In this document: piece after piece, positions 18,661 through 26,240 of the stretch
Position numbering within the stretch: position 1 is the first letter of the stretch
Layout of the letters: every line of letters starts with the position of its first letter
Assembly: GCA_963817915.1 (NCBI GenBank)
Contig: CAWFQL010000016.1
Coordinates: forward strand, 390,094 to 454,093
From: an uncultured candidate division Zixibacteria bacterium
GTDB lineage: Bacteria > Zixibacteria > MSB-5A5 > UBA10806
Direction of reading: 5' to 3'
DNA length: 64,000 nt
Notes under the pieces: generated by a model
Told to the model about the DNA's origin: nothing
The model's input: the letters and a program-made list of their open reading frames with translations, nothing else
Databases searched by the model: none
Position numbers and translations under genes: made by a program

Positions 18661-19140
18661 TTATTCCCCAAAATCACCACTAAATTTTACTTCACTTACA
18701 ACTCCCCAATTTCGCTCATATTTCCCATCTTCATAATACTTCATTAAAGAAGAATACCTATATTCAAATGGATCCTTTGACATTCCATGTCCGACAGGAT
18801 TAAAATGAATATAATCAATATGATTATTCATATCGTTTTGATCGCGAATAATATGGTCCCAAAATCGATTTTGCCAAACCTTGCCAGGGCGATATTGGCG
18901 GCGGAATTCCAATGAATATTTTGTCTTAAACGAATGTATAATTTGGGAAATAGAGATGTCGTCTATTTTTATTATCAGATGAAAATGATCCGGCATAATG
19001 ACCCAAGCCTCTAACGTGCTACCGGCCCAACTGCTCCAGAAAAGGTCGATATTTAAATGCAGGATGGCTTCTCTTTTAAACGTGACATTGGTTATAAAAT
19101 AATAAGTATTTCTAATGTCGAATCTTCGTAGCGTCTTCAT
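18661..19140 (-). mobile_element. REP-associated tyrosine transposase (RAYT/TnpA-REP, Y1 HUH family)
   Basis: YFIT, MPDHFH (HUH), WQNRFWDHIIRD, YIHFNP (catalytic Tyr) and YSS. GTAG-REPs flank both sides. Confidence 0.92.
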
Positions 19141-21440: not shown

Positions 21441-22318
21441 TGAGTTTCAATCGCCCCAAATAAATCTAATATTCTATTAAGATCGTCATTGGTGTAATAT
21501 TCGAAAATAATTTTGCCACCCTTTTTCTTCTGATTAATTGACACCTTTGTTCCAAATTTTCTTTTCAATACTTCCTCGACCGAAACTACCTGAGCAGAAC
21601 GGGATTCTGCCAATTTTAATTTTCTCGCGGGTTTATTATTATATACGAGCTTTTCGAGCTCGCGAACATTGAGCCCCTCGGCTATCGCTTTTTCAGCCAA
21701 GGCGATTTTTTCTGTATCGGTCTGCAGTGCTAATAGTGTTCGCGCTTGGCCCGCCGAAAGACGACCGTCGTTCACCATTCCCTGTATTACTTCCGGTAAT
21801 GACAGCAAACGAAGGGAATTGGCTACAGAGGATCTATCTTTGCCTACTCGTCCGGCGACATCGGCCTGGGTTAGATTGCATTCGGTCATCAGACGACGAT
21901 ATGCCGTTGCTTCTTCGATCGCATTGAGATTCTCGCGTTGAATATTTTCGATAAGGGCCAATTCCATCGATTCCTCATTGCTGGTGGAATCATAGACTAC
22001 CGCCGGTATAGAGGGCATACCCAATTTCTCGACAGCCTTGAGTCTTCGTTCGCCGACAATCAGTTCGTATCCATTCTCTGTAGCGCGAACTACGACGGGC
22101 TGAATCACGCCACGTTCTCTTATTGATTCGGCCAGCTCCGCCAATTTTGCCTGATCGAAAACCTGGCGCGGCTGAAATGGATTAGGCTTAATTTCAGATA
22201 TCGGGATTTCGAATATAACACCATGCCTTGAATGTGAGGAGGTATCCTCTTCTGCGCCCGATGCGCCGGCTCCCGGAATCAGGGCCTCAAGTCCTCTACC
22301 TAATACCATTCGCTTCAT
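21437..22318 (-). CDS. parB: ParB/Spo0J chromosome partitioning protein
   Basis: LGRGLEALI, NPFQPR, GERR and ALIENIQRENLNAIEEA. Confidence 0.97.
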   Translation of the reverse strand: MKRMVLGRGLEALIPGAGASGAEEDTSSHSRHGVIFEIPISEIKPNPFQPRQVFDQAKLAELAESIRERGVIQPVVVRATENGYELIVGERRLKAVEKLGMPSIPAVVYDSTSNEESMELALIENIQRENLNAIEEATAYRRLMTECNLTQADVAGRVGKDRSSVANSLRLLSLPEVIQGMVNDGRLSAGQARTLLALQTDTEKIALAEKAIAEGLNVRELEKLVYNNKPARKLKLAESRSAQVVSVEEVLKRKFGTKVSINQKKKGGKIIFEYYTNDDLNRILDLFGAIETQ

Positions 22319-23073
22319 CTGGACAAAACCTCCTTGGCGAGATTAATATAGTTTGCCGCTCCCGTGGACAAAATATCATATAACAATATCGGCTTGCCGA
22401 AACTTGGCGCTTCCGAAAGCCGGACATTACGATTTATAACAGTCTCGAAAACTTTTTCAGGGAAAAACTTGCGGGTCTCATCCGCGACCTGCTTGGAAAG
22501 ATTCAAACGGCCGTCATACATGGTGAGCAAGACACCGTGGATATCCAATTTCGGATTCAGATGCTTTTGAACTAATCGCACCGTATTCAGAAGTTGCCCT
22601 AGCCCTTCAAGGGCGTAATATTCGCACTGAATGGGAATAATGAGGGAATCGGAGGCTACAAGCGTATTAATTGTCAGAAGTCCCAGCGATGGCGGGCAAT
22701 CAATCAGGATAAAGTCGTATTTGTCTCGGATTGACGCCAAAGCATCCTGCAGCCTGTGCTCTCTTGAGGCCACAGACACTAGCTCAAGTTCGGCTCCAAC
22801 TAAGCTGATATTTGCCGGCAGAATATCGAGGAATTTGATCTCTGTGGACACAATCGCTTGTACGGCAGGGACTTGCCCCAACAAAACATCGTAGGTCGAT
22901 ATTTCCACGAGCTTCTTATCGATACCTACACCCGATGTCGTATTGCCCTGAGGATCCATATCGATCAGTAGAGTCTTCTTTTCGGCTACAGCCAGACAAC
23001 AGGCCAGATTGATTGCGGTCGTGGTTTTGCCGACACCGCCCTTTTGATTCGTGATTCCAATTATTTTCGACAT
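22315..23073 (-). CDS. parA: ParA/Soj ATPase
   Basis: NQKGGVGKTTT, DPQGN, DCPPSLG, QCEYYALEG and RLSEAPSFG. Confidence 0.97.
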   Translation of the reverse strand: MSKIIGITNQKGGVGKTTTAINLACCLAVAEKKTLLIDMDPQGNTTSGVGIDKKLVEISTYDVLLGQVPAVQAIVSTEIKFLDILPANISLVGAELELVSVASREHRLQDALASIRDKYDFILIDCPPSLGLLTINTLVASDSLIIPIQCEYYALEGLGQLLNTVRLVQKHLNPKLDIHGVLLTMYDGRLNLSKQVADETRKFFPEKVFETVINRNVRLSEAPSFGKPILLYDILSTGAANYINLAKEVLSR

Positions 23074-23158
23074 TGTAACCTCAAAAATTTCGGAAGGTTA
23101 GGGTGCTCATAGAATCAGATGCAAGACTATATTATTTCAGAGCGAAAATCAAGCGAAA

Positions 23159-23174
23159 AGTTTCACGTGAAACG
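23159..23174. promoter_or_regulatory. parS site (14-bp perfect core)
   Basis: aGTTTCACGTGAAACg, upstream of parA. Confidence 0.8.
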
Positions 23175-23190
23175 AGATAATATGGAATCT

Positions 23191-23806
23191 GTAGGTCCGA
23201 ACCCCCATGGTTCGGACTCCTGTCTTTTATTCTCCAATATTTCGGCGAAACCACGGGGGTTCCGCCCTACCCAAAGCAATTTATCTCGGAGCTATGATCT
23301 TGTAATACCCGACTCGCTCAAAATAGATGACTTTGCCATCGGGCTTGACGATTTCCTTGATACGATCGAGATGTTTCTCCCAGCGAGGGAGGAAATTGTA
23401 GGTCCGAACCCCTGCGGTTCGGACTCCTGCTTTTCATTTTCCAATATATAGGCGGAACCACGGGGGTTCCGCCCTACCCAAAGCAATTTATCTCGGAGCT
23501 ATGATCTTGTAATACCCGACTCGCTCAAAATAGATGACTTTGCCATCGGGCTTGACGATTTCCTTGATACGATCGAGATGTTTTTCCCAACGAGGGAGGA
23601 AATTGTAGGTCCGAACCCCTGCGGTTCGGACTCCTGCTTTTCATTTTCCAATATATAGGCGGAACCACGGGGGTTCCGCCCTACCCAAAGCAATTTATCT
23701 CGGAGCTATGATCTTGTAATACCCGACTCGTTCAAAATATATGATTTTGCCATCGGGCTTGACGATTTCTTTGATACTATCGAGATGCTTCTCCCAGCGG
23801 GGCAGG
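23191..23806. repeat. 207-bp tandem array: REP doublet + rsmG 3'-end copy (x3; the last copy is the real gene end)
   Basis: GTAG starts at 23191, 23398 and 23605. rsmG-end sequences start at 23281, 23488 and 23695. Confidence 0.95.
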
Positions 23807-24246
23807 GCGCGCACCAGGGCAACATCGAATTCAACTGTTGGCTGGTATGATTCGAGCCTGATTTCGGCGATTTCGATATTATTAATATCTAATTCGCTAT
23901 GAAGCTTCTTTAAAAACAATACTTTTTTATGGACAGATTCAACAAGCGTGAATCTTGCATTGGGACGACTGAGGGCAAGCGGGATTGCCGGGAAGCCGGA
24001 GCCGGAACCGATATCGACAACCTTACAAATATCGGGAATCTCGTTCAGTGGCGCCAGGGAATCAAAAAGATGTCGGGTGATCATCAGGCTGAGATCGTTT
24101 TGAGAAACCAGGTTCATCCGGCTCGACCAGGACCTAATCAGATCAAAATGTATCTCGACTTTCTGAACAAAGCCGTCATTGATCCCAAATGACCGGGCCC
24201 GAAGCCACGTGACTATTCTCTCTTTTTCGGCCTGACTTAACGGCAT
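23695..24246 (-). CDS. rsmG: 16S rRNA m7G527 methyltransferase RsmG (GidB)
   Basis: MNLVS, RHLFDSL, DIGSGSGFPAIPL, LVES..KK..FL and RAL. Lies between mnmG and parA. Confidence 0.95.
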   Translation of the reverse strand: MPLSQAEKERIVTWLRARSFGINDGFVQKVEIHFDLIRSWSSRMNLVSQNDLSLMITRHLFDSLAPLNEIPDICKVVDIGSGSGFPAIPLALSRPNARFTLVESVHKKVLFLKKLHSELDINNIEIAEIRLESYQPTVEFDVALVRALPRWEKHLDSIKEIVKPDGKIIYFERVGYYKIIAPR

Positions 24247-24266: not shown

Positions 24267-24282
24267 TGTTTCACGTGAAACA
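24267..24282. promoter_or_regulatory. parS site (perfect consensus)
   Basis: TGTTTCACGTGAAACA. Confidence 0.9.
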
Positions 24283-24358: not shown

Positions 24359-26195
24359 TCATATTTTCCGCCGAAGATGAACCATCAGGACCGCAATGTC
24401 GCCGGGGGATATCCCCGATATTCGGGATGCCTGACCGAGGGTTTCCGGACGAAATTTAGCCAATTTCTCAACCGCTTCGGTTTTGAGGCCGGTTAACTTT
24501 TTATAATCCAAACTGGTAGGCATCGAATAGCCATCCAACTTCGCCTGACGATCAACTAGCTCCTGCTGACGTTTGACATATCCGCCATAATAGATTTCGT
24601 TGGCCAGCTGACTAAATAGCCTTTCGCCATGCTTGGCCATTAAATTAGATAATATCGGATAGCTATTGATATCGATATGCGGCATTTTCAACGCATCGTA
24701 AACCGAGACGTTCTTCATCGTCGTATTGCCGTTATCCCGAGTCTCGATTTCGAGTCGCGTTTTCATCATTTCATTGAGCATTTCAGATTTTACAACACTG
24801 ATTTTGAGTATGTCTATCGAAAATATTCTGTTTTACCAGCCCGAGACGATAACCTTTTTCCAAAAGCCGCTCTTCGACATTATCCTCCCGCAGATTCAGG
24901 CGATATTCCGCCCGCGATGTAAACATGCGGTACGGTTCCGATGTCGATTTCGTGACCAGATCATCTATCAATACTCCGATATAGGCTTCTGATCGGCTTA
25001 ATTTGAACGGTTCCTCGCCGCGGATCTTCAAGACAGCATTGATTCCGGCCATAAGCCCTTGCGCCGCTGCCTCTTCGTAGCCCGATGTGCCATTAACCTG
25101 CCCCGCGAAATAGAGATTGGCGACGATCTTGGATTCCATCGTAACATATATCTGATGAGGCGGGAAGAAATCATATTCAATAGCGTAGCCGGGGCGGGTC
25201 ATCTCGATATTCTCCAGGCCGGGGATAGTGCGCAATGCCTGCAGTTGAATCTCCTTCGGCAACGATGACGAAAAGCCGTTGAGATAATATTCGGTGGTAT
25301 TTTTGCCCTCGGGCTCCAAAAAGAGCTGATGACGGGGCCGTTCGCTGAAACGAACCACCTTATCCTCTATAGAGGGGCAGTAGCGAGGGCCGATCCCCTT
25401 GATGACACCCGAATAGAGCGGCGAATACTTGAGATTGTCGCTGATTATCCGATGCGTTACGTCATTGGTATAGGTGAGATAGCAGAATACCTGATCGATC
25501 CGGCGCGAATGGTCGCTGCGATTCGAAAAGTATGGCGCAGGCTCATCGCCGGGCTGGGGATCACATTTGGCGAAATCGATAGTGCGGCCATCGAGACGGG
25601 CGGGGTGCCGGTCTTGAGCCGTCCGGTGGTGATGCCGAACGACTGAGATACTCTGGGATAGCCCGACCGCTGGCGGCTCATCGATACGCCCTGCCGGGAA
25701 ATGCTCTAAGCCGATATGTATCAAACCATTAAGGAAGGTGCCAGAGGTGATAACGACAGCCCCGGCGGTGATATTATCGCCATCAGACAGCCTAACCCCT
25801 TGACAGACATTGCCTTGCGTGATCAGCCCGACAACCTCGCCCTCGATAACCGTAAGCTGTTCTTGGGCTTGCACGGTTTCGGCCATGACCTGCGAATAGA
25901 GGGCTCTATCGGTTTGGGCGCGATGCGACTGCACGGCCGGGCCTTTGCTTCGATTGAGGATACGGAACTGGATTCCGGCCTGGTCGGTGGCATACCCCAT
26001 CTCGCCGCCGAGGGCATCGATCTCCATCACGAGTTGGCCCTTGGCCAGACCGCCGACCGCCGGATTACAGCTCATCCGTCCGATGGCCTGCTTATCCATG
26101 GTGATCATGGCGGTGCGCGCGCCCATTCGTGCCGCCGCTAACGCCGCCTCGATGCCGGCATGCCCGCCGCCGATGACTATGACATCAAAATCCAT
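24359..26195 (-). CDS. mnmG: tRNA uridine-5-carboxymethylaminomethyl synthesis enzyme MnmG (GidA); frameshift ~24800 and compensating indels ~25605-25655
   Basis: GGGHAGIEAA, MSCNPAVGG, GPRYCPSIEDK, GQVNGTSGYEEAAAQG and EPYRMFTSRAEYRL. RLKTGTP lies in an alternate frame, and the C-terminus is in ORF 24359..24781. Confidence 0.95.
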
Positions 26196-26240
26196 ATCCT
26201 TATATATCATTATTTTGCGGCTAAGAGGCAAGCGGATTTT

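Follow-up and report, generated by a model that had tools for sequence, protein, structure and literature searches.

The window analysed here is a 64,000-nucleotide stretch of the genome of an uncultured candidate division Zixibacteria bacterium (hereafter the source genome), and positions given without a contig label refer to it. It contains an mnmG-rsmG-parA-parB operon in which rsmG (gidB; 23695-24246, minus strand) is intact, its 183-aa product matching Pfam GidB and scoring above the cut-off of TIGR00138. From the end of rsmG toward the downstream gene parA (22315-23073, minus strand) extends a tandem array at 23190-23806, for which TRF gives a period of 207 bp, 3.0 copies and 0% indels, with spacings of 207 and 207 bp. 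Each 207-bp unit consists of a GTAG-REP doublet and the last 37 codons of rsmG, as a preliminary description made from the letters alone had stated. Read along the minus strand, the end of rsmG is followed by doublet C (23605-23684), whose GTAG lies 10 nt past the rsmG stop codon, a 5-nt junction spacer (23600-23604), copy B of the rsmG 3' end (23488-23599, minus strand) and doublet B (23398-23477). Then come the same 5-nt spacer (23393-23397), copy A (23281-23392, minus strand; 112 nt, 36 codons plus the stop) and doublet A (23191-23270), in which the GTAG ends face outward around two hairpins with 9-bp stems and which is joined to the unique downstream flank, the parS-like site and parA. Doublets B and C have exactly the same sequence, and 10 positions set doublet A apart from them. 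The junction spacer resembles the flank beyond doublet A but differs from it, and there is a CC microhomology at the array junction.

The palindrome at 23160-23173, which adjoins the array, has a second copy at 24268-24281, so that rsmG and the array are bracketed by two such sites; we take both to be parS-like. The motif is kept at the same place in most relatives. Beside the end of rsmG (23685-23697), the first hairpin begins 14 nt past the stop codon, and REPs so near a stop codon are said to influence translation. A promoter scan gave 3 sites where 2.7 were expected, and a 110-aa ORF on the plus strand (23119-23451) was set aside as a shadow frame that is interrupted in the next period. 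The consensus of the source genome is indel-prone: mnmG (24359-26231) lies in three pieces, with three frameshifts that are not in the contigs of a relative, and recA and a tuf copy also seem truncated. This bears on other findings of 'frameshifts' in the same genome.

The two displaced copies of the rsmG end are diverged from the gene mostly at silent sites. Copy A differs from it by six synonymous changes (including the edge codon, CTG/CTC) and two amino-acid changes, S/R and I/V. Copy B carries these changes and adds CGC/CGT and GAG/GAA, giving eight synonymous and two nonsynonymous differences, and copy A has the gene's base at both sites of these extra changes. Neither copy contains an indel or a stop. 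In each, the reading frame runs open for 50 codons after an in-frame TGA, with no ATG, GTG or TTG in it; both this lack of a start and the counts of changes agree with the preliminary description. The final 36 coding nucleotides and 13 nt are the same in all three units, which has P=0.016 if differences are distributed uniformly.

About 20-28% of the possible changes in the copied stretch are silent. Under a null that divides the divergence equally between a gene branch under selection and a copy evolving neutrally, the synonymous excess has P=0.003-0.027 for copy B and P=0.018-0.10 for copy A, each range being set by transition bias and by the treatment of the edge codon. At rsmG alone the bias is genuine but modest, and the locus was chosen for its pattern. 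A natural full-length RsmG (P0002), 95% identical, has the Arg of the copies and the Ile of the gene, which leaves no more than one amino-acid change peculiar to the copies. The copies, though untranslatable, diverged in the manner of a sequence under coding selection, and by their codons they look like former working ends resembling another functional rsmG allele. The synonymous excess and the Arg of the natural protein both bear out what the preliminary description had said on this point.

The repeats themselves are GTAG REPs, with the GTAG directly followed by a palindrome that has 9-bp stems and 5-nt loops. Genome-wide the family comprises 49 REPs, among them 18 strict inverted doublets, and is thus present as dispersed doublets. 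Doublets B and C each form a pair of separate hairpins, and a single long hairpin forms only in one strand of doublet A; the array's repeats are therefore better called BIME-like doublets than strict REPINs. The window contains a RAYT gene (18661-19140, minus strand). We rejected its product as the cognate enzyme of the array, since the gene is bordered by a different REP family. The cognate candidate lies on another contig (C17:582892-583401; contig label and position, as in all such references below), where it is flanked by the array's own REP family and scores 132 bits against NF047646 (cut-off 80). A RAYT may have bound and cleaved the repeats of the array and transferred strands there. 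TnpA-REP is described as cutting at a distance and transferring strands in vitro, a single-stranded circle being a published model (PMC3333891), and cleavage has been reported at C|T or C|A (PMC8266576). On the coding strand the rsmG junction agrees with C|T, but the other loci do not do so consistently and the chance rate is high. On the REP strand, T|T, frequently as AT|T, is the sequence at many repeat-bounded junctions in the source genome, an observation made post hoc. AT|T was not accepted as a junction motif, because it occurs at several loci but is absent at rsmG, at thpR and at a comparable locus of a relative (L048). In an E. coli mobilome study, REP circles were not seen with a method blind to ssDNA (bioRxiv 2024.07.17.603846). 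Searches with the REP pattern gave no viral contig, and the full doublet matched no genome contig. A single REP matched four genome contigs, one of them from a Zixiibacteriota assembly, and in none of the four was a gene-end duplication seen.

With its head-to-tail units and a boundary at the REP end, the rsmG array belongs to a known type, the tandem BIME or REPIN with a captured gene end, and its layout is not novel. Ton-Hoang et al. (2012) named the codA-cynR region of E. coli as a BIME that had captured a fragment of a gene, and they proposed single-stranded circles and rolling amplification (PMC3333891); their passages on it make no mention of a mismatch between alleles. The E. coli locus shares with rsmG the REP doublet joined to a gene 3' end, tandem periods of about 200 bp, a junction at the GTAG end and an intact gene. 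It differs in its REP family and phylum, and also in divergence, which is 7-9% and strongly synonymous in the rsmG array and amounts to two synonymous and two nonsynonymous changes in 84 nt in E. coli K-12. In P. fluorescens SBW25, tandem doublets with flanking DNA are given as the commonest higher-order REPIN arrangement (PMC3116915, PMC3337134, PMC3733652), and 3' ends of rayt genes have been described as captured in BIMEs (PMC2817692). These resemble the rsmG array in their tandem doublets with flanking DNA and in the capture of gene 3' ends. In contrast, the SBW25-type clusters are described as near-identical units amplified in place, and the passages of these papers that describe them report no allele from another lineage.

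Other classes fit less well. Integrative elements of the e14/icd type restore the 3' end of their target gene and, like the rsmG array, leave an intact gene beside a displaced, synonymously diverged 3' end. However, rsmG has no integrase, att core or cargo, its boundary is a REP end, and the source genome has duplicated 5' ends too. Only the 80-bp doublet and 15 nt stand between the gene end and the copy, and we rejected an integrase-driven element that restores a gene end. We also rejected a CRISPR-like archive, the spacers being near-identical copies of the adjacent gene end. Homology-facilitated illegitimate recombination (HFIR), described for natural transformation, combines a homologous anchor with a joint at microhomology (PMC6382021). 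The CC at the rsmG junction is in keeping with it, and ComEC and DprA are present in the source genome, but HFIR predicts neither joints clustered at REP ends nor tandem amplification.

A scan blind to REPs, in which 5,482 ORF ends of the source genome (22 contigs) were searched for same-strand copies within 30 kb, yielded 71 rows, 15 of them outside ORFs, at 13 loci. Four of the 13 proved to be paralogues or repeats and were left out (C6:166492, C12:541375, C16:333683 and C18:35988), and nine truncated gene-end copies, including that of rsmG, were retained. At seven of the nine a repeat lies within 6 nt of the junction, compared with 2.3% of free non-coding positions (P ~1e-10). The plainest RAYT-cassette scar in the genome lies at thpR (TIGR02258; C3:26518-27823, L033), where the gene is followed by REPs, a RAYT gene, a further REP and the displaced thpR end, with recA just downstream; the displaced end has 10 synonymous and two nonsynonymous changes plus two edge codons. 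The RAYT gene at this locus lies in two frames, possibly owing to a sequencing indel. At C3:21200-24085, 246 nt of the 5' end of a gene that we take to be hutH-like flank a 2.4-kb two-gene cassette, with 13 synonymous and no nonsynonymous changes and a junction 5 nt from a repeat. The 3' end of a presumed nupC-like gene (C3:41910-43914, junction at C3:43828) shows a ratio of 9:0, stop included, around a 1.9-kb one-gene cassette that has no REP at its junction. The remaining copies have synonymous to nonsynonymous counts of 1:1 (3' end of a presumed MFS gene), 0:1 (5' end of a presumed fumC-like gene), 0:0 (C9:349770), 0:0 (5' end of a RAYT gene on C21) and 1:3 (C17:56468).

The repeat-bounded loci other than rsmG pool to 24:6 (P=5e-6), nearly all of it supplied by thpR and the hutH-like gene, since the four others have 0-2 differences. 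The preliminary description had held that the absence of other REP-linked gene-end copies would count against its reading; such copies do occur, with synonymous bias, in the source genome and also in a relative (L048 in genome G011). The nupC-like case indicates that a scar can form without a REP and that a RAYT is not required. Duplications beside repeats in the source genome include 3' and 5' ends of genes as well as promoters and non-coding flanks, so gene ends are not singled out. For the suggested RAYT/REP-driven replacement of gene ends, the position of seven of the nine junctions at repeat ends is circumstantial support for the part of the RAYT, set against the strongly synonymous REP-free case and the lack of a cleavage signature. 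Cluster look-ups for thpR and for the C17 RAYT returned only proteins of the source genome itself, and the copies at these loci could not be polarised.

No second rsmG end was found near rsmG in any of 30 related genomes (29 with a match), no GTAG hairpin downstream of rsmG in 29 loci of relatives, and no donor allele at the DNA level among the related genomes, the nearest of which are about 50% identical in RsmG. A metagenome scan for relatives of RsmG gave two distant loci only. One sequencing run (X1) contains a relative at about 87-97% identity, only as low-depth contigs, and in a 367-nt contig of depth 3 the position 23185 is joined to 23693 via 139 other letters, so that this relative has no array. 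The contig stops at 23803, 3 nt before the array junction, probably because of low depth, although a branch from a junction of this kind could also lie there. Among 28 RAYT loci of relatives, one (L048) has a scar, a 103-nt gene-end duplication around a RAYT gene with a ratio of 10:0. In another relative (G002), a 258-nt duplication of 89% identity (L060:784-1041 and 2232-2489) flanks a RAYT-like gene.

We propose that a REP-ended piece of foreign origin entered by recombination at the gene end and was then amplified once, leaving an inert scar with two alleles, a reading that we consider about as probable as its negation. The piece, extending from within rsmG to slightly past the REP doublet, would have been excised in a related lineage and closed end to end, with the cognate RAYT, working on single-stranded DNA, as the most likely agent. 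After transfer, the piece would enter the chromosome via the common gene end, with rsmG staying intact. It may have done so as a circle of gene end and doublet, through a single crossover in the identical tail, or as a linear piece with an upstream homologous anchor and a non-homologous joint at the REP end, much as in HFIR. The end of the second allele would be left behind the doublet, and the foreign part could be either the resident end or the copies. One further amplification of the unit of doublet, junction and gene end, by unequal crossover or as a dimer, would yield the third unit. The 10 differences between doublet A and doublets B and C and the spacer unlike the flank, set against at most one private amino-acid change, argue for two haplotypes that were joined. 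By the same contrast the doublets, too, come from different lineages, which is hard to fit with duplication first. Scars like that of rsmG surround the thpR RAYT gene and the 2.4-kb cassette (13:0), and the one at L048 has the RAYT inside; import in one event also accounts for these cassette loci. Against it stand the single scar among the relatives' RAYT loci, the lack of a donor allele in DNA, the inconsistent C|T or C|A junctions and the REP-free 9:0 scar. Copy B's two extra changes also require one further small event.

The same locus could have formed in the reverse order, by a REP-bounded tandem duplication within one genome, after which the resident gene end and first doublet were exchanged by homologous recombination with another strain, the older allele stayed in the copies and the RAYT played no part in the allele mismatch. 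We regard this order as unlikely at rsmG but worth serious weight, since the E. coli cynR pattern fits it. In our comparison of the K-12 locus with eight hand-picked matches of 60 listed, the captured cynR end of K-12 differs at 4 of 84 nt from its own cynR but at 1 of 84 from the cynR that two other strains carry intact, so the captured end in these isolates is a natural allele of another lineage. The number of copies varies in E. coli, up to four places per genome among the matches listed. Copies in three strains have one private change in common while the resident alleles differ between strains, and one strain has a mosaic copy beside a different resident allele; judged from these alignments, allele exchange after duplication does appear to happen. 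Near-identical repeat-bounded duplications in the source genome (C21, 100%; C9:342401, one change; C6:102784, two changes) also speak for such a path. However, at rsmG it requires a donor diverged by 7-9% and a tract that ended at the junction and kept the spare unit, and it leaves the cassettes with new genes (thpR/RAYT, 2.4 kb, 1.9 kb and L048) unexplained.

The mismatch might instead have been made in the assembly, with the real duplication of one strain stitched through the identical tail to an rsmG allele that belonged to a co-occurring strain. The genome is from an uncultured organism, and its consensus errors are frequent enough to have split mnmG and 5 of 23 probed loci over frames. 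Even so, a chimera is improbable: the junction is a novel sequence that needs reads behind it, and the same pattern is seen around cassettes of 0.7-2.6 kb, in a second genome and in E. coli isolates. In addition, the 22 contigs and the full 16S gene would suggest long reads. An old neutral duplication, in which silent changes accumulated in the gene while the copies drifted, with a bias due to chance, would suit copy A taken alone (P from 0.02 to 0.10) at a locus picked for its pattern. With the values for copy B, the pooled excess at the independent loci and copies free of indels and stops, we think this quite improbable. Still more so, indeed very improbable, is an array that is selected, whether as a store of gene-end donors, as a translated element or for tuning parA expression. 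Its intact frames and its place between rsmG and parS/parA would suit such a role, but it has no start codon, differs by two amino acids only and is absent from relatives, and gene ends are not favoured among the DNA duplicated beside repeats. The 'archiving' function put forward in the preliminary description finds no support.

The rsmG locus itself is a harmless scar, and it is the allele mismatch that matters, because it touches on the spread of REPs and on the way in which RAYT genes arrive at new places. More generally, REP/RAYT systems may mobilise REP-ended pieces for which the end of a host gene serves as homing arm, moving REPs, RAYT genes and small cargo between related lineages by homologous recombination while the gene stays unbroken. 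This we put forward tentatively, as a generalisation that we doubt more than we believe. If this is true, elements regarded as passing almost solely by vertical descent would have a general way of spreading horizontally, and every displaced end would be the record of an allele from another lineage. The generalisation would contradict the near-vertical view of REPINs, which have been described as almost exclusively vertical (bioRxiv 2021.07.10.451892). A search of largely open-access literature gave no paper that reports mismatched alleles in gene ends captured by REPs. Seven repeat-bounded scars in one genome, one of them around a RAYT gene, together with the allele of another strain in E. coli, make the idea testable in strain collections, and the order of duplication and allele exchange should be readable from thousands of E. 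coli genomes.

Tandem amplification in the source genome extends to other DNA. The array's REP doublet occurs in two more tandem arrays, one of three 131-bp units that carry promoter-like sequence (C8:10338-10730) and one of four 318-bp units of non-coding DNA with several REP families (C11:71268-72536). At C16:333683-334722 (L036), three 322-bp units stand behind an intact tRNA-Met, each with a tRNA 3' fragment and an 84-aa nuclease-like ORF that we take to be GIY-YIG. The unit nearest the tRNA is the diverged one, with 12-16 synonymous and 6-7 nonsynonymous differences.
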